64,000 nucleotides of DNA from Lentisphaeria bacterium (GCA_041651315.1 JBAZJM010000004.1:1223-65222), one strand, 5' to 3'. Positions 19,684 through 41,323 are shown, numbered from the stretch's first letter. The notes: generated by a model from the sequence alone, not told the origin. A program made the numbers and translations.

Positions 19684-20922
19684 TCATTTCATCTGCACGG
19701 CAGGCTTGAAAACCACGGCCATCAGAACCATCAATACGACTGAAATGACGAATGCGATCAAGTACGGCTGCCCCCAATGGTGACGGACGGCTTGGGTGGC
19801 GGCATCGGTGACGGTGTTGTGCCCGAGAATGAGGTCGAACACAAAATTCGAAAGCAGCGTGCCCAAACCGAACAAGATCAGTCCGATCAGTCCCTGGGCC
19901 TGGCCGCGCAATTCGGCGGGCGCCACCGCATCAACGTACATCTGGCTGCCGACAACCAGCAGGCCGAAGATCAGGCCATGCACCAAAATGCCGCCGAAAT
20001 CGCCGGCAACCAGATTCTGTGACGCTCCCCAATAGAATGCGCCATAACGGATGGCTAGTGCGCCGAGACCGATGACCATCGCCCACTTGTAGCCGACCTT
20101 CCTCAGAATGAACGGGATCGTCAGCATGAAAATCAGTTCGAACACCTGCCCGAGGTTCATCGTCACGGTCAGATAGTTAACGCCCTTCTCGGCAAGATAC
20201 TGGCCACAATACACGTTGTACCACTGAAAGGGGATCATCGCGAGCAGGATCAGGATCGCAAACACCGCCATGTCAGTCCGTTTGAAGAGCACCAATGCAC
20301 GTAGTCCCAGCGCATCGACCAACGACATCGGCCGGTCTTTGGCTTTTGGCAATGTCGGCGGCAGGAAAAAAGCCAAGATGCCGCCCGACATGGCGGCAAT
20401 GGCTCCGGCCATGAAAATGCAGGGGGTGCTGTCGAAATTCTCGATGCCGAGCCACTTCGTGCCCACGATGCTGAAGACGGCGGATGCAACCCAGCCGAGC
20501 GAACCAAACAGGCGAATTTGGGGGAAAGCCGCGGCCGGGCTGTTCGCCATCGCAATGGTGGCCGTCAGCGACCATGTCGGCATGTAAAAGAGCATCACCA
20601 GCACCAGCGTGACAAACAGGACGGCGGGATCTTTGACCGTATAGGCGCAGGCCAACAGCGCCGCGGAAACAAAGTTGCAGAACGCCAGTACGTTCTCGCC
20701 GTTCATGAAGCGATCTGCGAACATGCCGAAGAACGGGAAGGAAAACGTACCGAACGCCATGATCAGGCCACAGCGATACGGCCACGGACTGCCCGCGGGA
20801 GAGAGTTTGGTCACATAGGCGAGCATGGGGACAAACCACACTGGCAGCATCATGAACTGTAAAAACATCATCGCGCTGAGTTTGGCGCGCGTCCCTATCG
20901 GCATCGTGCTCGACATCAACAT
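19684..20922 (-). CDS. MFS transporter, nucleoside:H+ symporter-like family
   Basis: 412 aa, 12 TM-like segments, N-terminus LSAMMFLQFMMLPVWFVPMLAY resembling the Nuc_H_symport family. G+C is visibly lower than in the neighbours. Confidence 0.6.
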   Translation of the reverse strand: MLMSSTMPIGTRAKLSAMMFLQFMMLPVWFVPMLAYVTKLSPAGSPWPYRCGLIMAFGTFSFPFFGMFADRFMNGENVLAFCNFVSAALLACAYTVKDPAVLFVTLVLVMLFYMPTWSLTATIAMANSPAAAFPQIRLFGSLGWVASAVFSIVGTKWLGIENFDSTPCIFMAGAIAAMSGGILAFFLPPTLPKAKDRPMSLVDALGLRALVLFKRTDMAVFAILILLAMIPFQWYNVYCGQYLAEKGVNYLTVTMNLGQVFELIFMLTIPFILRKVGYKWAMVIGLGALAIRYGAFYWGASQNLVAGDFGGILVHGLIFGLLVVGSQMYVDAVAPAELRGQAQGLIGLILFGLGTLLSNFVFDLILGHNTVTDAATQAVRHHWGQPYLIAFVISVVLMVLMAVVFKPAVQMK

Positions 20923-20963
20923 TCCTCTTTACGGTACCGCGGAAGTTTCGCCGGCCGGCCCGT

Positions 20964-21149
20964 TCATTCGGCCGGTGCCGCGAGGGTGAACACGGTGCCC
21001 TCGGCGGCGGCGACGTAAAGGGTGTCGCCGGCCGGGTTGCCGGCGGTGGCGGCTGCCGGCAACCACCACAGCCCGCCCCGCAGCGGAATGGCAAGGGCCA
21101 AGCGGCCTGCCCTGGCGGCCTGGATGATGATCTTGGCGGACGTGTCCAT
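20964..21149 (-). CDS. Small hypothetical ORF (61 aa); coding status uncertain
   Basis: It fills the gap between two co-directional genes with 9-nt and 41-nt spacers. No motif recognised. Confidence 0.25.
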   Translation of the reverse strand: MDTSAKIIIQAARAGRLALAIPLRGGLWWLPAAATAGNPAGDTLYVAAAEGTVFTLAAPAE

Positions 21150-21158
21150 GGCGAGCCC

Positions 21159-23033
21159 CTAAACTCTATGGCGCGCCAGCTTGGCTTTGTATTCTCTGGC
21201 CTGCCAGCCATTGATGTTCCGGTTGTACCAGCCCTCCTCGGGCAGGCCGAAGGCGAGGGCTTTCTCGTGTGCCACGGACAAGGCTTCCAGGGTCCGCTCC
21301 ATGCCGCAAACGCCCTGGCGTTCCGCATGTTTGTCATCCGTGGCAAAGAAGCGTCCCAGATGGTTCATGGCGCTTTGCTGGTGGTGCATGACCAACAGTT
21401 CGGAACTCTCGAAGAGGGCGCGGCGGACTTCCGTGTCGGCCAGCACCGCCGCCCGGCCGGGCATGTCGTTTTTCCGGGCGGCCAAGTCGGCGGCGGCCTG
21501 GGCCAGGTCGCGTGAGGCCGTGGCATAGGCGCGCGCCATCTCCTTGCCGAACGGGGTGTCCGTTTCCGGCAGCCAGCGGTAATCGAGGGAGTTGCCGGTG
21601 GCGTGGTCGCAGAATCGCATCGCTTCGGCGAAAACGGCGGCCCGCCGGCACAGATATTGCTGCCACGGGGCGGGGTTCTCGGGGCAGAGTTTCGGCGCCA
21701 GCCAGCCGATGAAGTTTTCGGACGTCAGTTCCTCGTGCCACAGCGCCCGCGCGAAGAGCAGCATGTTGAATTCCGGGGCGATGGCCGGGCCCGCGACTTG
21801 CAGCGAAAAATGCGTGCCGATGCCGTGCGACTGGTAGACGCGCAGGTCGCCCAGAATGACTCCGGGCAGGAACGGATACATGCCCCGGCATAGGACTTGG
21901 TCGAAGTAGTACTCGAAGGTGTGCGCGTCGCCAATGCCATTAAACGCGGTTTGCCAGGCCTCCAATGCTTTAAGGTAGAATGCGTTGCGCGGGCAACTGG
22001 CATCGTCGAGGGCATGGGCGTAGCAGCGTTCGCGCGGGGCGAAAAGCAGGAAGCATTCCGGCGTGGGGCGGATGTTTCTGCCTGGATACATCGTATCGTG
22101 GTACGCAATCACGGGGATCCGGCGTCCGGCGGCACCCTCTTCGCGGAGCGTTTCCGCCAGGAGCCGCATCGCCAGCATGGCCTGGTCGGAGGGAGAAAAG
22201 GCGCGGCAGGAAGGACAGTTGCACCACCCGCCCGCCGGCAGGTCGTCGGCCCAGGCATGCACGGCATAAGCGCCGGCATTCTGGCGTAGCGTCTCCCGGT
22301 AGTTCCTCTTCACGATCTGGCGGGCCTTGGGGTTGGTGACGCAAAAATTCGAATCGTTTGTCCGGCGGCCGTTGAAGTCTTCCGGCTGGAACATGCGAAA
22401 GAGTTCGGGCTCCTGCTCAAACCGCGCCCTGGGAAGCAATGCCGAGAGGCCATGCTCGCCGACTTCGAGGCGCAATCCCAGTTCCTCGGCCAGGCCGCGA
22501 TCCTCGATCCGATGGGCCACCGCATTGAACCGCAGTTTGGCGTAGAACCGCAACCACTCTTCCACGGAGAAATCCCTGGCTGTTTCCAGGCTGGCGAAAA
22601 CGCCCTGGCGGGCAAAACGGGGACGCATGGTCTCCTCGCCCAAGGGCAGGGGCTGCGCCCGGGCCGGTGCCCACTCCCCCTTCTCTCCCGGCAGCAGAAA
22701 GAGGAAACCCAGCCGTTCGGCCAGTTCGTATACCCCGTTTAGCACGCCTTTGGCCGAGCGCGCCGCAACCGTCACGCCATGGGCATCGACGGACAACCGG
22801 AAACCATCCCCGCCCCTGCCGTCCGCCGGGGCGTCCGCGGCAGAAGCATGCCGGGATTTTCGGGGGGCGATCCGCACAGAAAACCGGCCAGGCGTGGCCG
22901 GTCCGGCTTGGATCTCCGTTGCCACCCCGATTCGCCCCAGCAGCCGGGAAAGTTCCGCCACGGCATACCGATAACAGCGTTCGGCGCTCTGCTGATCCGC
23001 CATCACCACAACCTGACCGGTTAATTCAAGCAT
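21159..23033 (-). CDS. DUF4838-like glycoside-hydrolase-like protein with no signal peptide
   Basis: N-terminal GH20b/GH67N-like segment (KGVLNGVYELAERLGF) and the Cys motif GGWCNCPSCRAF, shared with the 841-aa paralogue-like protein at 26015..28540. Confidence 0.5.
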   Translation of the reverse strand: MLELTGQVVVMADQQSAERCYRYAVAELSRLLGRIGVATEIQAGPATPGRFSVRIAPRKSRHASAADAPADGRGGDGFRLSVDAHGVTVAARSAKGVLNGVYELAERLGFLFLLPGEKGEWAPARAQPLPLGEETMRPRFARQGVFASLETARDFSVEEWLRFYAKLRFNAVAHRIEDRGLAEELGLRLEVGEHGLSALLPRARFEQEPELFRMFQPEDFNGRRTNDSNFCVTNPKARQIVKRNYRETLRQNAGAYAVHAWADDLPAGGWCNCPSCRAFSPSDQAMLAMRLLAETLREEGAAGRRIPVIAYHDTMYPGRNIRPTPECFLLFAPRERCYAHALDDASCPRNAFYLKALEAWQTAFNGIGDAHTFEYYFDQVLCRGMYPFLPGVILGDLRVYQSHGIGTHFSLQVAGPAIAPEFNMLLFARALWHEELTSENFIGWLAPKLCPENPAPWQQYLCRRAAVFAEAMRFCDHATGNSLDYRWLPETDTPFGKEMARAYATASRDLAQAAADLAARKNDMPGRAAVLADTEVRRALFESSELLVMHHQQSAMNHLGRFFATDDKHAERQGVCGMERTLEALSVAHEKALAFGLPEEGWYNRNINGWQAREYKAKLARHRV

Positions 23034-25181: not shown

Positions 25182-25185
25182 GCTT

Positions 25186-25917
25186 TCACCGCTGCTTGCG
25201 GTTGCGGCGGGCGGGCCACAGCAGAGAGCCGCCTAGCCCCAGCAGGCAGAGCAAGCCAGGCTCGGGTACCACCGCCGTGTACACAGCGGACACGTCATCC
25301 AGGGCTATCTGCCGGGTAATGCCATGCGGATCTTGAAATTCCACGTATAGGTCGTGACCGGCGGCCGCCGTACCGGCGGTGTAGGAGCAGGTGCGCAGAT
25401 CCCAGCCATTGACCGTTGCGTTGCCGAAGGTGGCGGTGGTAAGCAAGGTGCCGGAGCCGACCGCGTCCGCCCAAAGCCGGATATTCAGAATCTGGTCCCC
25501 GGCAGGGCTGGGATACATGGTGACCATGTCCGGCCGCAATCCCTGATAGACCGTGACGGTGATTTGATCCCCGGCATTGACATGCAGGTTGGAGCCGCCG
25601 ACCTTCAAAATCTGGCTTAGGCTTGCAGGAATGACGCTAACCGGATCGAGAAATCCCCAATAGGTGCCCGTATGCGGGGCCAGGCCGCCAGTCGTTGGCG
25701 CGCGCCCCCCGCCCCCGGAAGTCGCCGTCCAGCCGGAAACGACATAGGTTGAAGGGCCGGCCTCAAAGCCTGGGTTGATGATGTCGATTATGGCGGCAGA
25801 CATGGTTCCAGCGGTGATGAGCATTCCCACTAGCACGGCCAATGCCATGGCAAAAACGGACGGGTATCCTGCTTTCGCGGTCTGGATCGGACGGGGGGAA
25901 CAGATTGCTTCTTTCAT
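25186..25917 (-). CDS. PEP-CTERM-anchored secreted protein with a CBM-like domain
   Basis: The C-terminus VPEPGLLCLLGLGGSLLWPARRNRKQR is a canonical PEP-CTERM motif. There is an N-terminal TM/signal, and IINPGFE opens a CBM4/9-like domain. The start is taken at ATG 25917. Confidence 0.8.
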   Translation of the reverse strand: MKEAICSPRPIQTAKAGYPSVFAMALAVLVGMLITAGTMSAAIIDIINPGFEAGPSTYVVSGWTATSGGGGRAPTTGGLAPHTGTYWGFLDPVSVIPASLSQILKVGGSNLHVNAGDQITVTVYQGLRPDMVTMYPSPAGDQILNIRLWADAVGSGTLLTTATFGNATVNGWDLRTCSYTAGTAAAGHDLYVEFQDPHGITRQIALDDVSAVYTAVVPEPGLLCLLGLGGSLLWPARRNRKQR

Positions 25918-26014: not shown

Positions 26015-28540
26015 TCACGGTGCGAGCATGACCTGCGCGAGCCGGTCAACGTCACCGAGTTTGCTGTAGGCAACCCAGGTGTCGACCCCGAAGGCGCCAC
26101 CCGTCAGTTGCGGCGAGGTGACCCGTGCCAAATTCAAGTAGAACGGGTTGCCCGCCGCCACTCCCGCCGGGGTCAGACTGGCGAACGGCAATACCGCCCG
26201 GGTGACCCAACGGTCAGGCGCGGAGGCATCCGAAATCACCCGGATGCCGTGATCCATGATCGGCACGTTCATCCGGAAATTGACCTCGCCATTCGTGGTG
26301 GCGGCAAGCAGGCCGTGCGGGTTGATGGCGAACTGCCGATACGGCAACGCCCGGTCCTTGGCCACGAAAATTTCCCAATCATCGTACGGGAAGACGGTGG
26401 CTGACGTCTGCAATTTCATTGTGGGACAAGGATCGGTCAATTCGAGATATAGGAACTGCCCGTCATGCAGTGCCCGGGCGGAAAGCGCGCGCACCGCAGG
26501 GGCATTTTGGCTCGCGGCATGCCAGGATCCCAGAACGGCCGCCTTGGACCAGTCGATCTTGGCGGAGTCACCGTGGGCCGCCGCCACCCGCGGCACGGTG
26601 ATGGACGGGATGGATGCCGCCGATCGCTCGACATACTGCTGGCGCCCGGCCACCATGTAACTCCAAACGCTCAATTCGAAAAGCTCCACCCGTTTCTTTT
26701 GGAGGTCGGTCGCGGCAAGCGCCTTGGCCTGCCGCATATGCTCGCCCAGTTGCGCCATCCGCTCGGGGGTGCCGAGTTTGCCCCAGGCAATGGGCATGGT
26801 TTGGTGGCGGTCGGCCGGGTCATAATTGCGCGGGTCACAGTAGGTTTCTTCAACCAACCGATAGAAAGCGCGCATCGGCGGCCCGGCCGGGCCGTACAGC
26901 CGGCTGAAATAGTCATCCATCAGCGTGTTGACGTCGAGTGACACGTCATCCATCAGCTTGTAACTCAGATAAGCCTCCAAGTCCTGGCCGTAGCCGCAAT
27001 AGAAGAAACCGCGCACCCCGAGTTGATGGAACAGCTTCATCTGCTGGTCGAGGGTATGCGCAAAGAAGCCGGGCCAGCAATGGAACTTGACGGCGTCGGC
27101 GACTTCCTTGGGAAACGTGTCGTACAGCCACAGGTAGAGCGGGCGTTGCTGTTTGGCCCACTGTTTAAGCAGGCCGATTTCGTGTGCATATTCTTCCTGA
27201 TAGGGGCCACGATTCCAGGCAAAGCAGAAATGCACCGCGACATTCTTCGCCAGCGGAAAGCTTGGTGGTGCCGCATGGCTCCCGTAGGCCAGGGTGACGA
27301 GTTCGTCCTGGGGGTTGGTCTGAATAACGTCCTGGGCGACCGCGTTGACGAAACGGAAAAAGTAATCGCTATACTGGCCGTTCGAGAAGTACGAGCACTC
27401 AGGGCGGGCCTTGGCCAGCAGCGCTTGGCAGCGGGCGCATTTGCAGAACGATCCGTTGTCCATCGGTTCGATCGGAAACGGATTGGGCGGCCGCGGTTGC
27501 CAGAAGATGCCCAATTGCCCGCCGGTTTTCTTGCCGTCCAGGTATGCGCGGGCGTCCTCGGTCAGTTGCCGGATCAGCCCATCGCTGGCATAACACATCT
27601 GCGGCGGCCTTCCCTGGTATCCTTGCGCGAACCAGTCCGGCTTCTTTTCGACGAACAGGCTGGGAGCCGCTGGATTTTTCTCCCAAAACCGGTCGTAATA
27701 GCCGTACAGCGAGTGATTGCAGCGGGCGATGACGCCCCCCTCACGGTGGCGGAGCTGGAACAAGCGTACCGCCACCCGTTTGGCGAGGCAATAACCTTGG
27801 GGGTTGGACATCCTGGCATGCATTTGGGGGTAGGCCGCCGCCTCCCAGGCGTTGAACCCGGCCGACCCGGCCGGCCAAAGCTGCGACAGTTCATCATACC
27901 GATCTCCCACGCTGCCCAGCCCGCCCAGCGCGTCACGGTAGCGGAACGTTGGCTGGCGGCGAATCATGCGGCTGGCCACCGTCAAGGTCGCGGCATGTGG
28001 GCAGTCGGTGCCGAATTCAGTCGCGTTAAACCAACGCACCTGGCAGAAGGTTTCGAGAAATTCATAACAAGCGTCCAATGAGCCGCGTTCATCCCAAATG
28101 TCGGGCCACGAGTGAAACATGCGGACAGGGTCGGCCGTGGTCGGATTATAGATGACCGGCCCGGTGTCCGGCTTGTCCCGCCCGATCAGCACCAGCGTGT
28201 CAGGGAAAAACCGGATCATGTATTCCTGGCTCTTAAAACTGTCCGCCCGGATGCCCAGTGCCCGGGTTTGGGCGCTGTCGCCAATGAGGATTCGGGGGCC
28301 GGTGGGCGTGACGGTGTCATTGACGATTTGCAGGGTGGCTCCGGTGATGTCCCGGACATGCGCCTGCAACTCGAACGCCCCCAATTGCGCCGCGCGTGTC
28401 GCCTGCTGGGCGATGACGATGGTGGCGGCCGGCTGGCGGTCTTTGACCAGTGTAAAAGACGGAATAGCCTCCGCGCTGGAACGCGCGGCCATGAGCACAA
28501 GCGGCAAAAAGGCACCGTGGAACATTTTTTTGAAAATCAT
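26015..28540 (-). CDS. Secreted DUF4838-like protein with a C-terminal CBM9/DOMON-like domain
   Basis: Signal peptide MIFKKMFHGAFLPLVLMAARSSAEA, the Cys motif GSFCKCARCQALL, and a C-terminal segment DGQFLYLELTD...FVAKD...FAINP. Confidence 0.6.
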   Translation of the reverse strand: MIFKKMFHGAFLPLVLMAARSSAEAIPSFTLVKDRQPAATIVIAQQATRAAQLGAFELQAHVRDITGATLQIVNDTVTPTGPRILIGDSAQTRALGIRADSFKSQEYMIRFFPDTLVLIGRDKPDTGPVIYNPTTADPVRMFHSWPDIWDERGSLDACYEFLETFCQVRWFNATEFGTDCPHAATLTVASRMIRRQPTFRYRDALGGLGSVGDRYDELSQLWPAGSAGFNAWEAAAYPQMHARMSNPQGYCLAKRVAVRLFQLRHREGGVIARCNHSLYGYYDRFWEKNPAAPSLFVEKKPDWFAQGYQGRPPQMCYASDGLIRQLTEDARAYLDGKKTGGQLGIFWQPRPPNPFPIEPMDNGSFCKCARCQALLAKARPECSYFSNGQYSDYFFRFVNAVAQDVIQTNPQDELVTLAYGSHAAPPSFPLAKNVAVHFCFAWNRGPYQEEYAHEIGLLKQWAKQQRPLYLWLYDTFPKEVADAVKFHCWPGFFAHTLDQQMKLFHQLGVRGFFYCGYGQDLEAYLSYKLMDDVSLDVNTLMDDYFSRLYGPAGPPMRAFYRLVEETYCDPRNYDPADRHQTMPIAWGKLGTPERMAQLGEHMRQAKALAATDLQKKRVELFELSVWSYMVAGRQQYVERSAASIPSITVPRVAAAHGDSAKIDWSKAAVLGSWHAASQNAPAVRALSARALHDGQFLYLELTDPCPTMKLQTSATVFPYDDWEIFVAKDRALPYRQFAINPHGLLAATTNGEVNFRMNVPIMDHGIRVISDASAPDRWVTRAVLPFASLTPAGVAAGNPFYLNLARVTSPQLTGGAFGVDTWVAYSKLGDVDRLAQVMLAP

Positions 28541-30452: not shown

Positions 30453-30457
30453 ATGAC

Positions 30458-30950: not shown

Positions 30951-31083
30951 GGGCGTTTGGCGGCCCGGCGACTTGCAACTGGGTTTAACTGGGTTAAACT
31001 ATGCGAAAGATGGCTTTGATGGGTTATGAAAGGTCGCCCAAAACTTCCCGATCATGACAATCACCACGAAAACATCCCGCGTG
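30941..31083 (+). repeat. Copy A of an approximately 140-bp duplicated promoter/operator/5'-CDS module
   Basis: It aligns with 39766-39908. Shared sequence: gccggcgacttgcaactgggtttaactgggttaaactatgc, and later catg(a/g)caatcacca(c/a)gaaaa(c/g)atcccgcgt. Confidence 0.85.
30973..31000 (+). promoter_or_regulatory. Sigma70-like promoter TTGCAA-N16-TAAACT overlapping the inverted repeat GTTTAAC-tgg-GTTAAAC (30983-30999)
   Basis: Read directly. It lies 54 nt upstream of ATG 31054. Confidence 0.5.
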
Positions 31084-32301: not shown

Positions 32302-32955
32302 ATGCGCCACAAGACAACGCGAGGCTTCACGTTAATCGAACTGTTGGTGGTCATCGCCATCATTGCCATCCTGGCGTCCATGGTATTGCCGGCGTTGCAA
32401 GGGGCCAAGGACAAGGCCAAGGCCATCAAGTGCGTCAGCAACCTCCGGCAGGTGGGCGTGGCCTTCTCCCTGTATAGCGGTGATTATAATGACTGGATAC
32501 TGGTCAATGACCAATACGGGAGCGGCATCTGGGTGCGCGCTTTGTTCAATCATGGCTACATCGCCCAACGGGACATCCTGGTCTGCCCCGGATTCACGCC
32601 TTGTACGTTTGCCCGGCCGATTGATGAATACAGTTACTGGAACACCTATGGGATAAAATTGGCCATTTATTACTCGGGGGCTCCGGCCGGGGATGGCTAT
32701 CAGCACGTATTCTTGCGGGCATCCAGGCTCAATGACGCCTTCTTGGGCGACACCGTGGGCACCAATCGCCACCAGCAGATTGCCTATTTTGTGACAACGT
32801 ACTTTCCTGAAGGCGGTGTCCATGCCAGGCATTCAGAACGGGCGAACATGTTGTTTCCTGACGGACATGTGGCGTCATTGTCCGGCGCGGAATTGCTGAG
32901 CGATGCAAAAACCGGTTATGTGAATGCGCAGGGCATGGACATCCCTTTGCCCTAG
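32302..32955 (+). CDS. Pseudopilin-like protein with a prepilin N-terminal cleavage/methylation motif and the H-X9-DG motif (DUF1559-like)
   Basis: MRHKTTRG|[24 protein letters not shown] has Gly(-1) and Glu(+5). The C-terminal [14 protein letters not shown] is H-X9-DG. Confidence 0.8.
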
Positions 32956-32979: not shown

Positions 32980-35220
32980 ATGAAACGAACGAGTGCGTTG
33001 TTTGGGCTGGCCATGAGCTTGGTGATGCCGCTTTGGGCCGGCGATGATGCGGTTGCCGGAAAAGCGCCAGGAGGGACCATGCGCTTCACTGCCTCTCCCT
33101 GCGATTGGGTGTATGCGCCGGGGGAGCCGGTCCTCGTCACGCTGGCCAGGGACGATGTCTCACGGCCGGCCGAACTGCGGGTGTCGGCCGTCGATTTTTG
33201 GGGGCAGGCCGCCTGCTCGCGAAAAGAGGTCTGGGAAAAGGGCGCGGCCGTGAAAAAGGTCAGCCTGGACTTCGACCGCCTTGGTTATTTCGTGGTCACG
33301 GCGTCTCTGGCCGTCACCGGTGGAAAACCGGATCCGTTTGTGGTGTCACAACCACTGGTTGTCATTCCACCCGCCCCGCCGATACCCAACGACCGGAATC
33401 CGTTCGGCGCCAATTTCCATCTTACCTGGTTCTCCGACGCTGCCGCGGAAAAGGAGCTCCGCCTGGCCCGACGCATCGGTTTTGGCTGGGGACGAGGGCT
33501 GCTTTTTGACTGGGTGCAGTTCGCGGCTCCCCCCAACCTGAACGATCCCAAGTTCTGCGCCCAATGGGATAGATTCATTGCCCTGATTGAAAAATCCGGC
33601 ATCGCTTGCCTGGGAGCCGTTTATTATGTTCCTAAGTGGGCTTCCGGCGCACCGGACAGCAGTGAATTCGGGGTCTGGTCCAGAACCATGCCAGACGACC
33701 TGACGCCCTTGACAAATTACTGCGAAGCCATGGCCAAGCGGTTCCCGTCCGTCCGCTATTGGGAAGTGGGCAACGAATCTGACGCCGTGCTTTTTTGGCA
33801 TGGGCGGAAGAACAGTTATGCGTCCGCTGATGACCAAAAGATCATCGAAGATTACGTTGATTTCCTTGCGGCGGCCGCCAAGGGATTCCGCCGGGGAAAC
33901 CCGGCGGCCCGCATTTTGTTCTCGGGCATTACTGACGCACGGGAGGATGGCGCCGACTATCGGCCCTTTGTCAAGCATGCGTTCAGCCGCGGAGCGGGAC
34001 GCTATGCCGATGTCATGAACGTCCATTATGTGAAGGACATTCCCGCTGTACGCCGGCTGCTGAAGGCGACGGGCGACGATTCAAAGCCCGTATGGGTTAC
34101 GGAGATTGGCGGCTGGACCACCGGCGAGGATGGCGACCCCCGCCCCCAGATCATCCGCGATATCACCCAGTCGGTCATCCAACTGTCGTCCGGTGCGGAA
34201 CGGGTTTTTAAGTTCGGCATCCGCAATGACGTCATTGATCCCGCGGGCTTTGACTACAAGTTCGGGCTGGTGCGGAACGATTTCGTCCCACAACCAGCCT
34301 ACGTCGCCTATGCCACCCTGATCCGGCTCATGGCGGACGCGACGTTCAAGAAGGAGTTGAACGTCACCGCGCAAGCCTCGCCCGGCTGGCTTCGGGGTTA
34401 TGAATACTCCTCCCCCCAAGCCGCGTTCTTAAATTGCCTCTGGCTGAATGAGGCGTCCAAGGCGGCGGTCGTTTTGCAGACAGCCGCTCCAACACTCACC
34501 CTGATCGACGTCATGGGAAACGCTCGCGAACTCAAGGCCCATGACGGGATCGTCCGTTTTGAGGCGGACGCCTTGCCGTTCTTCATCGTCGGACCGATTT
34601 CCGACCGTCAAGGGGAGATCAAGTATCCAGCGGATGAGTTTGTCCGAACCATTCCCATCCCGTTGGCCAATCCCGGTTTTGAAGCGGAACCGGCGGGCGG
34701 TTTTCCATTCCCTGGATGGATCTCCACCTTTGCCCCCAATTGCACGCTCAGCAGGAACCTGGCGCCGCCCTCCGTCCATGGCGGAAAGGCCTCTGCCGCC
34801 ATACACGTGCCGGCGCCAGTCAAAATTGCGGGGAAGACAACGCCATGGCCCCCCTGGCCGGACATTCACCAGCGCCTGGACTGGGCCTCACTCCGTCCGC
34901 AATTAACTGCCAATGAATATTTAAAAGTTCGCCTCGAAGCCTGGGTGAAATGTACAGGGGTCACCGGTCCCGGGGTTTGTGTTGGCTGTTTCTTAACCGA
35001 CAAGAACGGGGCACGAGTCCGAAGATGGGTGGAGACGGCACCACGTCCCTGGGGAAATGCGTCCGGCTGGGAGCGTCTTGAATTGGCCGGGACCATCCCC
35101 GTTCCAGACGAAAACGGGAAGCTGAGTGTCGAGCTGCATATGGCTCCCGGCACGTGCGGGACGGTTGAGTGGGATGACTTGTCCCTGTCGATTGAGGTAT
35201 GGCGAAAGCAGATTAAATGA
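32980..35220 (+). CDS. Secreted clan GH-A glycoside hydrolase (family unassigned) with a C-terminal beta-sandwich/CBM-like region
   Basis: Signal peptide MKRTSALFGLAMSLVMPLWA, the acid/base-like YWEVGNESD and the nucleophile-like VWVTEIGGW. Confidence 0.6.
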   Translation: MKRTSALFGLAMSLVMPLWAGDDAVAGKAPGGTMRFTASPCDWVYAPGEPVLVTLARDDVSRPAELRVSAVDFWGQAACSRKEVWEKGAAVKKVSLDFDRLGYFVVTASLAVTGGKPDPFVVSQPLVVIPPAPPIPNDRNPFGANFHLTWFSDAAAEKELRLARRIGFGWGRGLLFDWVQFAAPPNLNDPKFCAQWDRFIALIEKSGIACLGAVYYVPKWASGAPDSSEFGVWSRTMPDDLTPLTNYCEAMAKRFPSVRYWEVGNESDAVLFWHGRKNSYASADDQKIIEDYVDFLAAAAKGFRRGNPAARILFSGITDAREDGADYRPFVKHAFSRGAGRYADVMNVHYVKDIPAVRRLLKATGDDSKPVWVTEIGGWTTGEDGDPRPQIIRDITQSVIQLSSGAERVFKFGIRNDVIDPAGFDYKFGLVRNDFVPQPAYVAYATLIRLMADATFKKELNVTAQASPGWLRGYEYSSPQAAFLNCLWLNEASKAAVVLQTAAPTLTLIDVMGNARELKAHDGIVRFEADALPFFIVGPISDRQGEIKYPADEFVRTIPIPLANPGFEAEPAGGFPFPGWISTFAPNCTLSRNLAPPSVHGGKASAAIHVPAPVKIAGKTTPWPPWPDIHQRLDWASLRPQLTANEYLKVRLEAWVKCTGVTGPGVCVGCFLTDKNGARVRRWVETAPRPWGNASGWERLELAGTIPVPDENGKLSVELHMAPGTCGTVEWDDLSLSIEVWRKQIK

Positions 35221-35296: not shown

Positions 35297-36790
35297 ATGC
35301 CCTTCCGCATTTATGAAGTGCCTTCCGCAGAGAAATGCAACGAGGAATGGCAATTTCTACTGGAGGGCCGGCCAGTCCCGCTTCGCGAGGCGCGGGTCTC
35401 CGCGGTGCCGTTCAACCGGCGCTGGCCGGGGCACCAACGCGGCCTTGAGCAGACCGAGCTTGTCCCCTTTGCCGCTTTTGAACTGGATGGACCGGTGCAG
35501 GTTACGGTAAAACCGCCGGGAACGTTTCAACACGCTATCGTGCGCCCTCTCTCAAAAGGGGTTGTCCCGCAAACCGACGGCCGTCATATTACCTTTGCGC
35601 TCCGGGAGGCCGGTGCCTACACGCTTGAGCTTGACGGACACCATCATGCCCTGCACATTTTTGCCGACCCTCCGAAAGATTATGGCATCACGTGCCGACA
35701 CGACAATACGCTCTATTTTGGCAAAGGCCTGCACGAGGCCGGGATGATCACGCTGAAAAGCGGGCAGACGGTCTTGATTGACGAAGGCGCGGTAGTCTAT
35801 GCCTGCATTCACGCGAAAAACGCCGACAATATAAAAATTTTGGGGAAAGGCATTCTCGACAACAGCAAAAATCAGGAGCAGATCCTTTTTGAACTAAAAA
35901 AAACGGGGGATGGCAGTGTGGATAGCGGCAACGCCAAGCGCATTCATACCGTGCAGCTTGAATATTGCAACAATATAGAAATCGACGGCATCACCATCCG
36001 GGACTCGCTGGTTTACAATATACGGCCGGTCTGTTGCAATGGTTTGTCAATCAATAATGTTAAACTCATTGGCAATTGGCGTTTCAATAGTGACGGGATC
36101 GATTTGCACAACTGTATTCACACCACCATCCGCAATTGTTTTTTGCGTACCTATGACGATGCCATTTGTGTCAAGGGCTTTGACTATCGGCATCGCGAAT
36201 CGGACCGGAATGGCGGGCGGAACGATTATTCGTCGATGGATGACGTCCTCATTGAGAAATGTGTCATCTGGTGCGATTGGGGGCGGGCGCTGGAGATCGG
36301 AGCCGAAACACGCGCCGAAGAGATAAAAAACATCACGTTCCGTGACTGTGATATCATTCGCAGCACGCATGTTGCCATGGACGTGCAAAATGTCGATTAC
36401 GCCGACGTGCATGACATCGTTTTTGAAAATATCCGGGTCGAGTATGACCCGGTCTGCCAGGCGCCCGCCATACAGGGAACCGACCAGGAGGCCTTCGTTG
36501 AGGATACCAACAGCAGATATCTGCCGGCCTTAATGAGTTCAAGCATCCTCAAACACCATGAGTATTCCGCGGGCGGCGCCCGCCGCGGCAAAAACCATGA
36601 TATCCTCTTTAAGGACATACAGGTTACGGCGACGCGGATGCCGCCGTCTTCTTTCGGCGGTTATGATGAAGCACACCAGACAGCGCGGGTAAAAATAGAA
36701 AATCTCCGCCTGAACGGAAAAAAGCTGACCACACTCACTGAAGCCATGATTGCCCTCCGGCCATTTGCCAACGACATCACGATTCAGTGA
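35297..36790 (+). CDS. Glycoside hydrolase family 28-like (polygalacturonase-type parallel beta-helix) with no signal peptide
   Basis: NSDGIDLHNCIHTTIRNCFLRTYDDAICVKG matches the GH28 catalytic Asp motifs. G+C is lower than in the flanks. Confidence 0.75.
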   Translation: MPFRIYEVPSAEKCNEEWQFLLEGRPVPLREARVSAVPFNRRWPGHQRGLEQTELVPFAAFELDGPVQVTVKPPGTFQHAIVRPLSKGVVPQTDGRHITFALREAGAYTLELDGHHHALHIFADPPKDYGITCRHDNTLYFGKGLHEAGMITLKSGQTVLIDEGAVVYACIHAKNADNIKILGKGILDNSKNQEQILFELKKTGDGSVDSGNAKRIHTVQLEYCNNIEIDGITIRDSLVYNIRPVCCNGLSINNVKLIGNWRFNSDGIDLHNCIHTTIRNCFLRTYDDAICVKGFDYRHRESDRNGGRNDYSSMDDVLIEKCVIWCDWGRALEIGAETRAEEIKNITFRDCDIIRSTHVAMDVQNVDYADVHDIVFENIRVEYDPVCQAPAIQGTDQEAFVEDTNSRYLPALMSSSILKHHEYSAGGARRGKNHDILFKDIQVTATRMPPSSFGGYDEAHQTARVKIENLRLNGKKLTTLTEAMIALRPFANDITIQ

Positions 36791-38066
36791 AGTCCGGGCA
36801 TTTGATGACCGACGGCACCAGGCCGAGGGTCACGACCAAAAGGGTCACCATGATTGAACAGCAGAGAATCAAGGTGTCGTACTGGCCCATTTGATGTCCG
36901 GCAAAAGTCCAATGGTCGTTTAGCAGTCCGAACTTTATTGCCTGGGAACTAAAAAGGCCTGACAACGCAACGCCCGCACTGCAAAGAGCTTGATTGATCG
37001 CGGTGGCCACTGGCTTGTTGTCCGCGGGCGTGAGGCGGATCATCTCGGAAGTCAACGCGATTCCCGATGACGCTTGGACACAGCCGAAAACCGCGCCCAA
37101 CGCCCCGACAAATAAAAGCGCAAAAGGAGCCGGTACAAACCCCCTGAAAAGATAAACCAGAAGAATCGCGCCAAATGAAAAGTGGCAAATCAAAAACATT
37201 ATTTTTGTCCCAAGCCGGTCAACCATTTTTCCGCCCAAGTAAAAACCGCCCATCGAACCAAGCATAAGCAAATTCCCCGTCAGGATCACTTCATCGTCGC
37301 CCAAGCCCAACGGTCCCTTCGCTAAAAGGGCGAACAGGCTCGCGCAGCAACCGGTCGCCAGCATCAGTAAAAAGGTGTACGCGCAAAAGGGCATAAACCC
37401 CGGTGCCACAATTGCCTTCCAAATGGACTCGCGTAACGACGGGCGTGGACCGGACTCAACCTGGTTTGCGGGAAGGCGTGAAAGGTAGATGATCCCGGCG
37501 ATTTTGCCGACCAGCGCTAGGCACATGAAAAGCTGGAACACCTTTAGGCTGGAGTCGCGTTTTAAAACCGCGATCACCGCCAACGCAAACAGGATTGACA
37601 CCGCCTGAAAAAAAAACCGCATCGTCCCGAAAAAACGCCCGCGTTCATTGTCCGGCACAAACGTCGACGTCAACGGAAACCAGGACGCCACATACAACGA
37701 CATGCCGACGCCGTTGGCGAGCATCCCGGTCCAGATGAATAACCAGTCCTTGCCAAACGGTTTAAAAAACGGCGCGCCGATAAGTAAAATAAACCCCGCC
37801 GCGCTTACGCATTGCCCGGTCATGCCATTCCTCACATAAGGGGAACGTCCCGAGTAATGAGCCGCCGGAACCATGGTAAACATGTAAACCAAAGGGGACA
37901 GCGCCAAATAGACCAGTATCATGTCGCTGGGCACGCCTAGCGCGGCAAGGTACATCAGCATAAAGCTGTTGTAGTACAAATTGTCAACAACCCCATAAAG
38001 ACAGGTGGCCTTTATGGCGGTGGACATCGCCTTCTTTTGCTCAGGCGAGGCGGAACGGGTCATCAT
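36777..38066 (-). CDS. MFS transporter
   Basis: 429 aa with about 12 hydrophobic segments and low G+C. Its 3' end overlaps the convergent GH28 gene by 14 nt. Confidence 0.7.
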   Translation of the reverse strand: MMTRSASPEQKKAMSTAIKATCLYGVVDNLYYNSFMLMYLAALGVPSDMILVYLALSPLVYMFTMVPAAHYSGRSPYVRNGMTGQCVSAAGFILLIGAPFFKPFGKDWLFIWTGMLANGVGMSLYVASWFPLTSTFVPDNERGRFFGTMRFFFQAVSILFALAVIAVLKRDSSLKVFQLFMCLALVGKIAGIIYLSRLPANQVESGPRPSLRESIWKAIVAPGFMPFCAYTFLLMLATGCCASLFALLAKGPLGLGDDEVILTGNLLMLGSMGGFYLGGKMVDRLGTKIMFLICHFSFGAILLVYLFRGFVPAPFALLFVGALGAVFGCVQASSGIALTSEMIRLTPADNKPVATAINQALCSAGVALSGLFSSQAIKFGLLNDHWTFAGHQMGQYDTLILCCSIMVTLLVVTLGLVPSVIKCPDFTES

Positions 38067-38087: not shown

Positions 38088-38654
38088 CTATTTCCGGCGC
38101 CGGCGCAGAACGGCCAAGCTACCGAGGGCCAGCAAGGCCATGCTGGCGGGTTCAGGCACGACCGAAATATGGTCGATGGCGATGACCACCGTGTTGTCCG
38201 CCGGTTGGCCGGGCCGAAGTGAGCAATTTAGAAAGGTATATTCAAAAACACCGGTAGCGTTAGCGGTAAAACTGTAGGTGTAGGTACGCCATTCAGTGGA
38301 AACGGCCGTGTAACTAGTGTAGACCCCGCCCAATGCATTAAGTAAATAGGGATTGGTGCCGGACGTGTTGGACACCATTTTGGCCATGAACGAGACCCAA
38401 TAGGTCGTCCCCGCCTCCACATGCAGATAATCCGCCGTGACCAGGCCAAACCACGTATTATTGGTTAACTGCACATTGGCGCCGTACGGCGACCCGTTCG
38501 TATTGGTCGAATCCCACAGCGCCTTCCCTGAGGTATGATCAGTCCATCCAGTTGTACCGTTGGTGAAATCAGGATTGGCGATCATGTTGGCCATTCCCGT
38601 TTGGGCGATAGCCAGCAGCGACACGATCAGTAAACAAGACAGGGCGTTTTTCAT
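38088..38654 (-). CDS. PEP-CTERM-anchored secreted protein with a CBM-like domain
   Basis: Signal peptide MKNALSCLLIVSLLAIAQTGMA, IANPDFTNGTTGWT opening a CBM4/9-like domain, and the C-terminus VPEPASMALLALGSLAVLRRRRK. The start is taken at ATG 38654. Confidence 0.8.
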   Translation of the reverse strand: MKNALSCLLIVSLLAIAQTGMANMIANPDFTNGTTGWTDHTSGKALWDSTNTNGSPYGANVQLTNNTWFGLVTADYLHVEAGTTYWVSFMAKMVSNTSGTNPYLLNALGGVYTSYTAVSTEWRTYTYSFTANATGVFEYTFLNCSLRPGQPADNTVVIAIDHISVVPEPASMALLALGSLAVLRRRRK

Positions 38655-38874
38655 GATCGGCTCCTTGTTCGGTTTGTTTCCCATCTGCCGCCCGGCCGCC
38701 ACGTTAGGTGCGACCCGCCATTCAGGACGGAATGATACATACTTCATAAACATAGCGGTGCCGGCGCCTGCCGACCATGGATGTTTCTGTCAAAAACATA
38801 TACAGTATGGTATATTCGCTTTGCCGGACTAGACTATGGCCCAGCCATAACCCGTATTTATTATTGCAGAGGCC

Positions 38875-39753
38875 ATGATGAAAGGATCCTGGATCATTGG
38901 TCATGTTTTTTCCGGCGGAACCTTGACCGGAATTAATCCGCGGCTTATCTCCGCCATTGCCAAGCGTCGGATCACGAAGATGCTGAGTCCTGGCTATATC
39001 GTGGCCGCCTGGGTACTTGACTATGCGGTGGATGATTCCGGCCTTTGCCGGGTGCGGATGGCAAACGGCGCCTGGTACGCCCGTGAACCGGGAACCGCCC
39101 ACCTTTACGCGCCAGGAACCCGGGTGTGGGAAGATAGCCGCATGACCACCGGCGGTTTTGAATCCCGGTATGTTGTCTTCACCGGCGGCCAGTTGGCGGG
39201 ATTGGATGAATTTGTCCAGAACAGCCGGGGATTTGGGCGGTTCCAGGACCCGGCCGGACTGCTGGGGGAACGGTTGCGGCAGATCGCCCTGGCGGTTCAG
39301 GACGGCGGTGCCGGGGCGTTCTGGCACGCGCAAGGCCAGCTTGCCGACCTTTTTGCCCTGCTGTTGCGGCAGACGCACCCGGTGGCGGGCAGCAATTTTG
39401 TCCGCGTCATTGCCGAGGCCCCCACCGACGGCATCATGGGAGTGGTGGAACAGGCAGAGCAGTGGCTGTCCGTCCATTATCGGGATGCCTTTTCGCTGGC
39501 GGCCCTAGCCGCTCGCCTGAAGGTGAGTCCCACCACGCTGACGCACCGGTACAAGCGTCTCACCGGCGAAAGTCCGGTGCAGGCGCTGCTCGCCATCCGG
39601 GTCAGCCATGCCAAGGAACTGCTGTTGCGCGGCCACAGTTTGAAACAAATCGCCGCGGAAACCGGCTTTTACGACCCGTTCCACCTGTCCAGGGTATTCA
39701 AGAAGAAGACGGGACTGTCCCCCCGTCAATATCTGAAACGGCATGGTGCCTGA
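38875..39753 (+). CDS. AraC-family transcriptional regulator, paralogue of 57507..58380
   Basis: C-terminal double HTH (LSLAALAARLKVSPTTLTHRYKRLTGESP...IAAETGFYDPFHLSRVFKKKTG). By eye it matches 57507..58380 at roughly two-thirds of positions along its full length. Confidence 0.85.
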   Translation: MMKGSWIIGHVFSGGTLTGINPRLISAIAKRRITKMLSPGYIVAAWVLDYAVDDSGLCRVRMANGAWYAREPGTAHLYAPGTRVWEDSRMTTGGFESRYVVFTGGQLAGLDEFVQNSRGFGRFQDPAGLLGERLRQIALAVQDGGAGAFWHAQGQLADLFALLLRQTHPVAGSNFVRVIAEAPTDGIMGVVEQAEQWLSVHYRDAFSLAALAARLKVSPTTLTHRYKRLTGESPVQALLAIRVSHAKELLLRGHSLKQIAAETGFYDPFHLSRVFKKKTGLSPRQYLKRHGA

Positions 39754-39765
39754 AACGAGTTATCC

Positions 39766-39908
39766 GATTGGATAGGGGGGGCCGGCGACTTGCAACTGGG
39801 TTTAACTGGGTTAAACTATGCAAGAGATGGTTTTAATGGGCTATTTGCAAGTCGTTCAGAATTTCCCTTCTTCCCTTCATGGCAATCACCAAGAAAAGAT
39901 CCCGCGTC
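39766..39908 (+). repeat. Copy B of the approximately 140-bp duplicated promoter/operator/5'-CDS module
   Basis: It aligns with 30941-31083 in the same orientation. Confidence 0.85.
39790..39817 (+). promoter_or_regulatory. Second copy of the TTGCAA-N16-TAAACT promoter with the inverted repeat GTTTAAC-tgg-GTTAAAC (39800-39816)
   Basis: Read directly. It lies 62 nt upstream of ATG 39879. Confidence 0.5.
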
Positions 39909-40220
39909 GGGAGGACGGTTCACGACGTCGAAATTCCCTATCTGGACCGCCTTCCCGACCGGGCCTGGGAAATCGCCGGCCTGATCTCTGGGCTGTTCAG
40001 TTCGTTCTACATCGTGCTCCAGATCGTTTCCGAGATTCACGCCACAGGGCCTTCCACACTCTCTTTGGGGTTCGTGGTCGGCAATCTCGTCAACATCGCC
40101 TTCTGGCTCCTGTACGGAGTACGGTTCCGGCGCTGGGCCGTCTGGGTGGTCAATTTGGCGGCCTTGCTCGCCCAATCCACGCTTCTGGCCGTGGTGGTCC
40201 TGTCCCACGGACATCCATAA
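39879..40220 (+). CDS. Small 3-TM membrane protein, SemiSWEET/PQ-loop-like
   Basis: 113 aa. SSFYIVLQIVSEIHATGPSTLSLGFVVGNLVNIAFWLLYGV fits the PQ-loop pattern (xQIxxxxxTxxxxxLS...WxxYG), with Leu in place of Pro, and there are three hydrophobic helices. The overlapping alternative frame 39818..40225 was rejected. Confidence 0.5.
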   Translation: MAITKKRSRVGRTVHDVEIPYLDRLPDRAWEIAGLISGLFSSFYIVLQIVSEIHATGPSTLSLGFVVGNLVNIAFWLLYGVRFRRWAVWVVNLAALLAQSTLLAVVVLSHGHP

Positions 40221-40240
40221 ACTGATAGAGGATTCCCTAC

Positions 40241-41323
40241 ATGGATGACATCATCAAGCCACGCGGCCCACTGGCCCGGTTCAAACAGGCGATTCAGTCG
40301 GGCAAGGTGCGGGTCGGATTCATCGGCGGCTCGATCACGGAAGCCCACCGCGAATCCAACTGGCCCTATTTCATCCGGGCCTGGTTCGTCAAAAAGTTCC
40401 CCGGCGTCCGGGCGGCCTGGGAAAACGCCGCCATCGGCGGCACGGGCAGCCTGAGCGGCGTCATGCGCGCCCAGCGAGACCTGCTTGACACCCGCTGCGA
40501 CATCGTGTTCGTCGAATACGCCGTGAACGACGGCCCGGGCGAAGCGACCATGCGGACCCGCGAAGGGCTGATCAGGAAGCTGCTGGAGGAGGAGCGTGAC
40601 GTGATCCTGGTCTACACCTACTGCCAAGACATGTACGCGGCGATGTCCGCCGGCCAAATGCCTGCCTCCATCGTCGAGCTGGAGATATTGGCGGAACACT
40701 ACTGCCTCCCCTCCGTCTGGATGGGGCTCCATGCCTATAACGAGATGAAGGCGGGCCGGATGACCTGGGAAGGCTGGCTGCCCGACGGGCTGCACCCCGA
40801 TTATCTGGGCAGCAGCATCTACGCCGAGCCGGTGATCGCCTTCCTGGAGGCGGAACTGGCGGGGCCGGCCCGGCCGTCCATCCCCAGTGGGGCGCTGCTT
40901 CCCGCCCCCCACACTCCCAACCATTTTCAAGACATCCGCGAGATCCCCCTCGACGACGCCGAGCTACGCGGGCCGTGGACCGAGATGCGGGAGGTGATCC
41001 TGCCGTGGTACCGCACGGCGCTCTGCACGGCGGCGGACGGGGCGGAACTGAGCCTCCACTTCACCGGGCGCGCCCTCTGCGCGATGCTCAATTTCGGCAA
41101 GACGTCGGGCGTCCTCAAGTACCGCTTCGATGGCGGCGAATGGCGGGAATTCACGGGGGAGCGCTGCTGGTGGGTGCCTGACAAGAACTGGTGCCAACCG
41201 GTGCTGCTCGCCGACGACTTGAGCGACGGAGCACACCGCTTCGACCTCCGGGTGGTGCACGGCAACCGCGAGGAGTGCAAAGGCACCACCTGCAAGATCT
41301 TCACCTTCATGGCGGTGCAATGA
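40241..41323 (+). CDS. SGNH/GDSL-family hydrolase (putative carbohydrate esterase) with a C-terminal beta-sandwich
   Basis: Block I GFIGGSITE, block III EYAVNDG and block V DGLHPD. Confidence 0.7.
   Translation: MDDIIKPRGPLARFKQAIQSGKVRVGFIGGSITEAHRESNWPYFIRAWFVKKFPGVRAAWENAAIGGTGSLSGVMRAQRDLLDTRCDIVFVEYAVNDGPGEATMRTREGLIRKLLEEERDVILVYTYCQDMYAAMSAGQMPASIVELEILAEHYCLPSVWMGLHAYNEMKAGRMTWEGWLPDGLHPDYLGSSIYAEPVIAFLEAELAGPARPSIPSGALLPAPHTPNHFQDIREIPLDDAELRGPWTEMREVILPWYRTALCTAADGAELSLHFTGRALCAMLNFGKTSGVLKYRFDGGEWREFTGERCWWVPDKNWCQPVLLADDLSDGAHRFDLRVVHGNREECKGTTCKIFTFMAVQ

Follow-up and report, generated by a model that had tools for sequence, protein, structure and literature searches.

A 64,000-nucleotide stretch of a Lentisphaeria bacterium genome (GCA_041651315.1 JBAZJM010000004.1:1223-65222; hereinafter the window, meaning the whole stretch analysed) carries at positions 19684-41323 two back-to-back gene clusters for carbohydrate-active enzymes (CAZymes), here termed locus A and locus B, with housekeeping genes on either side. 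Each begins with a sugar-binding transcription regulator of the LacI or GntR type that is fused to, or immediately followed by, a pseudopilin, and we found this pairing to recur in Lentisphaerota with CAZyme genes next to it. Our preferred reading, to which we assign a probability of about one half, is that this uncultured, high-GC Lentisphaerota bacterium has here two sets of glycan-utilisation operons side by side, each under its own regulation and built to a plan typical of the lineage, in which a cytoplasmic repressor would sense the sugar and the pseudopilin would be an operon-specific subunit of a shared machine. As far as the searchable literature shows, the phylum-level rule by which sugar repressors are followed by private pseudopilins is new, as are the conserved head module of regulator, PEP-CTERM protein and pseudopilin in this freshwater clade and the recurrent fusions of regulator to pseudopilin; searches with DUF1559, H-X9-DG, Lentisphaerota pseudopilin and Victivallis prepilin retrieved no paper describing the pairing.

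Domains were identified by Pfam/NCBIfam profile searches, with PDB sequence searches for selected proteins. The genes at the heads of the two loci are as follows (here and below, a slash precedes residue +1 of the prepilin motif):

28607..30415, minus strand: LacI repressor (helix-turn-helix, HTH, plus type-I periplasmic-binding-protein domain, PBP) fused in frame to a DUF1559/H-X9-DG-like pseudopilin domain (Pfam/NCBIfam); locus A
31054..32280, plus strand: AraR-like regulator B (GntR winged HTH plus LacI-type PBP; PF00392 8.6e-15, Peripla_BP_3 PF13377 8.6e-23); locus B
32302..32955, plus strand: pseudopilin B, stand-alone, 217 aa, 22 nt after the regulator B gene (RG/FTLIELL); locus B

The locus A regulator combines the N-terminal LacI HTH (PF00356, 27.2 bits, cut-off 27) and type-I PBP effector domain (Peripla_BP_3 PF13377, 8.8e-28; PF00532, 9e-21) that define the LacI/GalR family. 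Regulator B joins a GntR winged HTH to a LacI-type sugar-binding domain, the architecture of Bacillus subtilis AraR; JGI annotates its orthologues as 'GntR regulator of arabinose operon', and its best named relative, at 59% identity, comes from a Lentisphaeria bacterium. Pseudopilin B (N_methyl PF07963, 2.7e-9; TIGR02532, 34.5 bits) displays a complete class III prepilin signal, with a basic leader (MRHKTTRG/), Gly at -1, Phe at +1, Glu at +5 and a hydrophobic helix, and its C-terminus fits the H-X9-DG pattern, with TIGR04294 (16.6 bits against 19) and PF07596 (E 0.0035) both below cut-off. The original prediction, made from the sequence of the window alone, had described the fusion, the stand-alone H-X9-DG pseudopilin and the GntR-HTH/LacI-ligand regulator; the fusion, the regulator and the stand-alone pseudopilin are borne out, as are nearly all of its other domain calls, the H-X9-DG assignment being a candidate one with TIGR04294/DUF1559 below threshold, and every open reading frame (ORF) it had listed was recovered on recomputation with the same coordinates and strand.

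We surveyed the genomic contexts of pseudopilins in 80 loci (1.04 Mb) from genome contigs of Verrucomicrobiota, Lentisphaerota and Planctomycetota, with regulators called by a home-made LacI-PBP hidden Markov model and phyla split by record title (survey 1). In 13 of 19 PBP regulator ORFs a prepilin motif follows on the same strand within 250 bp, and Pfam assignment of the gene upstream of each of 75 pseudopilins, on the same strand, yielded Peripla_BP_3 (11), GntR (8), Peripla_BP_1 (5) and N_methyl (3), with all others at no more than 2. A LacI/GntR PBP regulator lies directly upstream of 9/25 Lentisphaerota pseudopilins (binomial p = 3.8e-6 against a conservative background of 5.4%) and of 1/48 pseudopilins of the other phyla. 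The pairs are tight, with short gaps, and the genes after them are mostly CAZyme-like or sulfatase genes, coding for a glycoside hydrolase (GH) 78 rhamnosidase, a sulfatase, DUF4838, GH123-like and beta-helix proteins, and CBM4_9/CBM9 proteins (CBM, carbohydrate-binding module); 11 of 15 such genes, counting those of the window, encode a signal peptide. This agrees with the original prediction, which had proposed a survey of related genomes for such adjacency next to CAZymes. Triads of regulator, pseudopilin and secreted protein also occur in the culturable Victivallis (L030). The L018 locus (7750-10786), from a Victivallales metagenome-assembled genome (MAG), has two pseudopilin genes in tandem after its PBP regulator and, beyond these, a gene for a DUF4838 protein whose signal peptide resembles that of a lipoprotein. 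Exported proteins encoded right after pseudopilins in three further loci (L005, L032 and L044) have a CBM4_9-like start (NGNFELD in L005, NPDFNQ in L032), and similar start motifs (NPGFE, NPDFT) are seen in the PEP-CTERM proteins of the window.

A complementary survey of metagenome contigs centred on orthologues of regulator B (42-81% identity), with 50 distant regulators (<35% identity) as controls (survey 2). A pseudopilin was present within 3.5 kb downstream on the same strand in 5/5 orthologue loci whose sequence extends 2.8 kb or more past the regulator, two of which (L094 and L104) possibly derive from the same organism. A PEP-CTERM protein was present downstream in 4/11 orthologue loci that extend 400 bp or more beyond the regulator, in three directly after the regulator and in L092 after the pseudopilin; neither kind of protein was beside any of the 50 distant regulators. 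Gene order varies among contigs retrieved for single orthologues: one (P0123) runs regulator, PEP-CTERM protein, DUF1559 pseudopilin, GH39, esterase and, farther on, GH127; another (P0130) regulator, pseudopilin, a 464-aa protein and GH42; a third (P0127) regulator, Pel9A-like protein and pseudopilin; and a fourth (L091) regulator and PEP-CTERM protein. As judged from these gene neighborhoods, regulator, PEP-CTERM protein, pseudopilin and glycoside hydrolases stay associated in orthologous loci despite the shuffling of their order. Because no PEP-CTERM protein was found near pseudopilins in the 26 Lentisphaerota loci of survey 1, we rejected the possibility that such partners are a general Lentisphaerota trait; the element is specific to this freshwater clade.

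The fusion in locus A is one ORF (30415..28607), in which the pilin motif is recognised by TIGR02532 (16.9 bits, cut-off 16.3) at the junction ...AKATR/FTLVELL, while PF07596 stays below its cut-off (16 bits against 23.3) and the H-X9-DG motif is interrupted. Phe at +1, Glu at +5 and the hydrophobic helix are present; the 'leader', however, is a 370-aa regulator and residue -1 is Arg, in place of the short leader and Gly/Ala of a prepilin cleavage site (among the sequences compared, the norm at -1 is Gly, or Ala within this pseudopilin family). No in-frame ATG, GTG or TTG occurs just upstream of FTLVELL. Given the Arg at -1 and what is established about prepilin processing, cleavage of this fusion by a prepilin peptidase is doubtful. 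Three contigs encode an identical 591-aa product, one of them coming from an independent Logan assembly of run SRR8542065 and another from an ENA assembly (the NCBI gene call is a 602-aa form), and the pilin part keeps its coding bias, with a G+C of 0.78 at third codon positions (GC3) and zero stop codons against 2-17 in the other frames; an assembly or frameshift artefact was therefore rejected. The closest orthologues of the regulator A part (74-84% identity) are stand-alone proteins of 372-418 aa. One of their loci runs LacI, PEP-CTERM LamG protein, SASA, GDSL, DUF4838, GHL6 and GH20, and another (L090) LacI, PEP-CTERM protein and pseudopilin.

An exhaustive phmmer search of 1.84 billion representatives, followed by sequence inspection, recovered additional fusions of the LacI type (P0287, ...KHKGG/FTLIELL; P0305, ...TRTRGG/FTLVELL) and of the GntR-HTH/PBP type (P0380, ...ARPARG/FTLVELL). 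Together with a further fusion, P0011, and that of the window, these amount to at least five independent regulator-pseudopilin fusions, three of the five having no Met before the leader. P0287, P0305 and P0380 are singleton clusters; P0011, in contrast, belongs to a 90%-identity cluster holding both fused forms of 741-744 aa and split forms of 356-371 aa, the latter named by JGI as LacI regulator or prepilin-type protein and some of them sharing the same contigs. Thus, in other samples the two halves of this protein (L003/P0011) are separate adjacent genes, a fusion/split polymorphism in one population. An ancient conserved fusion was rejected, as the nearest orthologues are stand-alone and the other fusions are singleton or polymorphic. 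Since fused and split forms share one 90% cluster and the rest are singletons, the sequences point to a fusion that is recurrent but shallow, as is expected if co-transcribed neighbours occasionally join and the join is tolerated. The search also returned a tandem LacI-LacI fusion (P0323, 662 aa), in which another PBP-type effector domain is appended to a complete regulator; it is unrelated to pseudopilins. An AlphaFold model of the fused pilin domain (predicted local distance difference test score, pLDDT, 67; predicted template-modelling score, pTM, 0.65) displays a long N-terminal helix and a small sheet, and a Foldseek search with it against the PDB gave no match below E = 1.5; the AlphaFold2 model of pseudopilin B had a mean pLDDT of 43.6 and was not used.

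Downstream of the fusion, locus A continues on the minus strand with intergenic gaps of 66, 97, 4, 9, 9 and 41 nt, as recomputed from the coordinates (MFS, major facilitator superfamily):

26015..28540, minus strand: DUF4838 protein, 841 aa, Sec-exported, putative depolymerase (DUF4838 2.4e-26; signal peptide MIFKKMFHGAFLPLVLMAARSSAEA)
25186..25917, minus strand: PEP-CTERM A, secreted, 243 aa from MKEAI..., with the PEP-CTERM tail VVPEPGLLCLLGLGGSLLWPARRNRKQR running to the stop codon
23043..25181, minus strand: GH42M/GHL6-like protein, 712 aa, leaderless (GH42 trimerisation domain 3e-12; GHL6 below threshold)
21159..23033, minus strand: second DUF4838 protein, 624 aa, leaderless (DUF4838 1.8e-13; weak GH20b N-domain)
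20964..21149, minus strand: 61-aa ORF, coding status uncertain
19684..20922, minus strand: MFS A importer, Nuc_H_symport type (Nuc_H_symport 1.3e-67)

The 841-aa protein had been called DUF4838/CBM9-like; the DUF4838 assignment stands, whereas CBM9 was not detected by Pfam/NCBIfam, and a PDB sequence search with the protein gave no match. PEP-CTERM A is recognised by NF038120 (1.2e-6), with its Pfam PEP-CTERM score below cut-off, and its N-terminal IINPGFE motif is like the start of a CBM4_9 domain, a CBM-like fold being putative. The 712-aa protein is a candidate cytoplasmic glycosidase, and the 61-aa ORF has no family match in Pfam/NCBIfam.

Locus B continues beyond pseudopilin B on both strands:

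32980..35220, plus strand: GH39-like (clan GH-A) enzyme, 746 aa, Sec-exported (PDB 5jvk 6e-10, PslG 5e-6)
35297..36790, plus strand: GH28 (polygalacturonase-like) enzyme, leaderless (GH28 2.6e-12)
36777..38066, minus strand: MFS B, MFS_1 transporter (Pfam)
38088..38753, minus strand: PEP-CTERM B, secreted CBM_4_9 protein with PEP-CTERM anchor (CBM_4_9 2.3e-9; PEP-CTERM PF07589 3.4e-7)
38875..39753, plus strand: AraC-family regulator, divergent from the PEP-CTERM B/MFS B pair
39879..40220, plus strand: SemiSWEET-like membrane protein, 113 aa (three hydrophobic segments; MtN3_slv E 0.05, below threshold)
40241..41323, plus strand: SGNH/GDSL esterase, leaderless (GDSL match)

In the PDB sequence search, the sole relatives of the 746-aa protein with solved structures were 5jvk and PslG, the latter a GH39 enzyme of clan GH-A; this similarity supports the assignment of the protein as a GH39-like clan GH-A enzyme, and a GH39-like gene is likewise present in the orthologous P0123 locus. 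PEP-CTERM B scores 30.5 bits with PF07589 (cut-off 20.7), and the features of PEP-CTERM substrates, namely the PEP motif, C-terminal transmembrane (TM) helix and basic cluster, are present in both PEP-CTERM A and B. The start of the SemiSWEET-like ORF is most likely 39879. The lowest G+C of the window (0.526), together with a strong AT skew (0.19), is found at 36001-38000, spanning the MFS B and PEP-CTERM B genes, a pair that may have a separate origin.

Candidate regulatory sites lie upstream of both regulators and within locus B:

30438..30474, minus strand: candidate LacI operator pair of locus A, a perfect palindrome ATAAACATGTTTAT at 30438-30451 and a 2-mismatch copy at 30461-30474
30973..31000, plus strand: locus B promoter 1, TTGCAA-16-TAAACT, read by eye (8/12 matches) and below the threshold of the scan tool
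30983-30999, plus strand: inverted repeat GTTTAACTGGGTTAAAC between the TTGCAA and TAAACT hexamers upstream of regulator B
39800..39816, plus strand: second exact copy of the 17-mer GTTTAACTGGGTTAAAC, in a ~90-bp duplicate of promoter 1 upstream of the SemiSWEET-like and esterase genes

The 14-bp palindrome of the ATAAACATGTTTAT type has 3 matches at up to 3 mismatches upstream of regulator A against 0.29 expected, and the pair overlaps a promoter-like site (TTTGCA-17-TATATT, 30486..30458); a palindrome near the regulated promoter is characteristic of LacI/GalR operators, and we regard the pair as a predicted site. In locus B, the promoter/operator duplicate (30965-31060 versus 39782-39880) has 83% mean column identity over a 134-column alignment and takes in the first codons (M-T-I-T-T-K in one copy, M-A-I-T-K-K in the other). 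Because the identical 17-mer heads both, we place 39879-41323 in the same predicted regulon as regulator B, such that one regulator probably controls two separate locus B operons. Regulator B orthologues from L091 and L093 (81% identical) retain a -35 hexamer, behind which come CTGGGTT(T/A)AACTGGGTT(T/A)A and, as a third copy, TGGGTTAA. Among other loci the exact 17-mer was found only in copies of the window itself, and the only trace of operator conservation beyond the window consists of related TGGGTT(T/A)AA repeats carried by close orthologues. A scan for terminators returned counts at chance level. As the predicted operators sit on the regulators' own promoters, with the locus B site kept in the 81% orthologues, sugar sensing by the cytoplasmic PBP domains is the economical reading, and in each locus the sugar-binding repressor, itself cytoplasmic, is predicted to regulate its own gene through the inverted repeat at its promoter.

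The original prediction had seen one module shared by the two loci; analogous parts are indeed present in both, but they are not copies of one another. Regulators A and B are 31% identical over the PBP domain, pseudopilins A and B 47% identical over the N-terminal 88 residues only, the PEP-CTERM proteins have just their tails in common and the MFS transporters are unrelated. A recent duplication was therefore rejected, as only the regulators and the pilin N-terminal helices align. Judging by their N-termini, the 841-aa DUF4838, 746-aa GH39-like and both PEP-CTERM proteins carry signal peptides, and the 712-aa, 624-aa, GH28 and GDSL proteins do not; this pattern suggests for each locus one exported enzyme, an anchored binding-type protein, an inner-membrane importer and cytoplasmic finishing enzymes. 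Both loci agree with the dbCAN-style definition of a CAZyme gene cluster (a CAZyme with a transporter and/or transcription factor no more than a few genes away). In line with what had been predicted, the Pfam/NCBIfam searches detected no SusC/SusD, TonB-dependent receptor (TonB_dep_Rec, Plug) or ABC importer domain in any gene of 19684-41323. The defining SusC/D pair being absent, the loci are not Sus-type polysaccharide utilisation loci (PULs), and the proposal of a distinct PUL-like organisation is upheld by the enrichment of regulator-pseudopilin adjacency in Lentisphaerota and the conservation of orthologous loci, which make this non-Sus arrangement a recurrent one.

Like the Sus-like PULs of Bacteroidota, the two loci are substrate-specific co-regulated clusters in which a sensor/regulator and an importer accompany surface glycan binders and glycosidases, both exported and later-acting ones; unlike them, they lack a SusC-like transporter, SusD, a hybrid two-component system and a pair of extracytoplasmic-function (ECF) sigma and anti-sigma factors, having in their place uptake by MFS/SemiSWEET-like proteins, PEP-CTERM-anchored binders and an operon-specific pseudopilin. 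With generic CAZyme clusters and 'Gram-positive PULs' they share a cytoplasmic LacI/AraR-like repressor, palindromic operator, transporter and CAZymes in one operon, but they differ in the diderm host, in a pseudopilin gene that comes right after the regulator, in having PEP-CTERM CBM proteins and in the repeated fusion of regulator to pseudopilin. The C-terminal PEP motif, hydrophobic helix and basic tail of both anchored proteins are those of the PEP-CTERM/exosortase system; here, however, these are small CBM-type proteins in catabolic operons rather than exopolysaccharide loci, with no exosortase seen in the 64-kb window.

On our preferred reading, the polymer would be bound and nicked outside the cell, with surface capture by the PEP-CTERM CBM proteins being plausible; the oligosaccharides would be imported by the inner-membrane MFS transporters, and in locus B by the SemiSWEET-like protein too, and then finished by cytoplasmic enzymes, a product of which would release the repressor and derepress the operon. 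The pseudopilin would be induced together with its own operon and plug into a shared type II secretion system (T2SS)/type IV pilus-like machine, without acting as a sensor, and we lean slightly towards a role in exporting or displaying the exported enzyme and PEP-CTERM protein encoded in the same operon, over direct glycan binding. Such a subunit role is favoured by the best profile matches of the pseudopilin N-termini, which are to GspG/GspH, by the exported protein usually encoded next and by a published parallel from a verrucomicrobial alginate operon; the exact role, be it export, display or capture, is one we infer. In that parallel, from Verruconatronum alginivorum, an alginate-induced operon whose expression rises on the substrate contains a PulG-like pseudopilin from a family of 67 paralogues, and the authors suggested a connection with export by the T2SS (PMC13274419). 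That operon, too, is a non-Sus CAZyme operon of a PVC bacterium (Planctomycetota, Verrucomicrobiota, Lentisphaerota) with an embedded pseudopilin of a large paralogue family; it differs in phylum and substrate, and neither regulator-pseudopilin adjacency nor a fusion nor a PEP-CTERM partner was reported for it (PMC13274419). The locus A fusion would be a real but young joining of two co-transcribed neighbours, its repressor probably remaining membrane-tethered, as the Arg at -1 probably prevents cleavage. Several observations weigh against this scheme. The window holds no T2SS, prepilin peptidase or exosortase gene, and the machine is assumed; 4 of 15 genes directly after a pseudopilin encode no signal peptide; the structure models are too weak to establish a pilin-type globular domain or a binding site; a purely structural role does not explain why the pseudopilin sits beside the regulator rather than anywhere in the operon; and the five independent fusions could point to a physical or functional link between regulator and pseudopilin.

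A glycan-capturing fibre, the view taken in the original prediction, is a serious alternative, albeit one that we consider unlikely: the operon-specific pseudopilins would be glycan-binding subunits of an extracellular fibre and, with the PEP-CTERM CBM proteins, would replace SusD/SusE-type binders. This would suit the highly divergent C-terminal domains of pseudopilin paralogues and their co-localisation with CBM-bearing proteins, and it has precedents in the binding of dextran to pili-like fibres of planctomycetes (PMC5394234) and in the type IV-like pilus proposed to attach Akkermansiaceae to fucose-rich glycans (PMC13174399). The Akkermansia MUL2 pilus and the planctomycete crateriform fibres are likewise PVC pilus-like fibres implicated in the binding or uptake of complex glycans, but they represent single conserved machinery loci or observed fibres and not per-operon pilin paralogues coupled to sugar repressors (PMC13174399, PMC5394234). 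Moreover, profile and fold searches detected no carbohydrate-binding fold or motif in either pseudopilin of the window, the N-termini are like those of T2SS pseudopilins, which are normally periplasmic, and some regulator-pseudopilin pairs precede leaderless cytoplasmic enzymes. The sensing role that the original prediction gave the pseudopilin fares worse. It would require the LacI/GntR regulator and pseudopilin to be a previously unknown trans-envelope signalling pair, in which a pilin-like domain senses periplasmic glycan or signals that a pseudopilus is being assembled, and the availability of the repressor depends on the insertion of the pilin-like protein, its processing by prepilin peptidase or assembly of the pseudopilus; the fused forms could then be tethered regulators similar to ToxR/CadC, or repressors freed by prepilin-peptidase cleavage. 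The independent fusions, including those with no Met before the leader, the tight gene pairs and a fitting topology (N-in, single helix, C-out) speak for this, yet we judge it improbable, both for the signalling pair itself and for the role in general: the fusions are shallow, being either singletons or, in one population, found alongside split genes, the fused regulator of the window has stand-alone proteins as its nearest orthologues, stand-alone prepilins expose only ~8 cytoplasmic residues as a leader, and the regulators retain a complete effector-binding PBP domain of their own together with an operator.

ToxR and CadC are membrane-tethered one-component regulators, and RsgI/SigI are biomass sensors of Clostridium thermocellum. 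The fused proteins resemble these in layout, with one membrane helix between a DNA-binding module in the cytoplasm and a domain outside it, but their DNA-binding module has its own ligand domain, their outer domain is pilin-like, and the HTH-TM-sensor architecture, conserved in ToxR-like regulators, is present in the fusion and absent from its nearest orthologues. At the other extreme, regulator and pseudopilin might have no functional link, with the numerous PVC paralogues landing beside regulators and CAZymes by chance or hitch-hiking and the fusion in the window being a decaying accident. The size of these families (DUF1559 is the largest paralogue group of Planctopirus, with 68 genes; PMC10632474), like that in Verruconatronum, makes such encounters conceivable, and close regulator A orthologues occur without an adjacent pseudopilin, while Arg at -1 probably blocks processing of the fusion. 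Nevertheless, this is very hard to reconcile with the enrichment in Lentisphaerota, the presence of a pseudopilin in 5/5 orthologue loci against 0/50 controls, the neighborhood kept despite shuffling, and a fused pilin ORF that retains codon bias without stops.

The interval is bounded by genes for an ABC-F ATPase (17420-19096) and glucose-6-phosphate dehydrogenase (41434-42948), and its G+C (0.53-0.62) is lower than that of the flanks (~0.67). In the divergent spacer separating the loci, the C-terminal part of a DDE_Tnp_1 (IS4/IS5-type) transposase survives as a remnant that contains an in-frame TAA stop:

30582..30905, minus strand: DDE_Tnp_1 transposase remnant (profile positions 127-200 of 200)

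The remnant and the G+C dip suggest that the loci were juxtaposed or acquired via mobile-element activity. Elsewhere in the window, three large ORFs of 1371, 680 and 881 aa (8384-12499, minus; 43092-45134, plus; 54733-57378, minus) have coding-type codon bias and no Pfam match, and a putative unrelated redox operon (58510-61779, minus) encodes a DUF362 protein and a multi-4Fe-4S protein downstream of another AraC-family regulator, the second of the window (60937-61779). The best named relatives of the 2-isopropylmalate synthase of the window are from Victivallales and Lentisphaeria MAGs (66-67% identity).

PVC bacteria are major degraders of complex glycans that do so without the Sus paradigm; their pilin-like paralogues, of unexplained function, number in the tens to hundreds. 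The present results tie one branch of this pilin-like family to sugar-responsive repressors and CAZyme operons, in a manner that is statistically clear and lineage-specific. Were trans-envelope signalling true after all, the expanded H-X9-DG/DUF1559 family would amount to a set of glycan sensors, and the fusions would be the signalling pair in one polypeptide. The function of the pseudopilin is now a testable question, Victivallis being culturable and carrying the same triads, and the regulator-pseudopilin pairing offers a practical marker with which to find and delimit glycan-utilisation operons in Lentisphaerota genomes.

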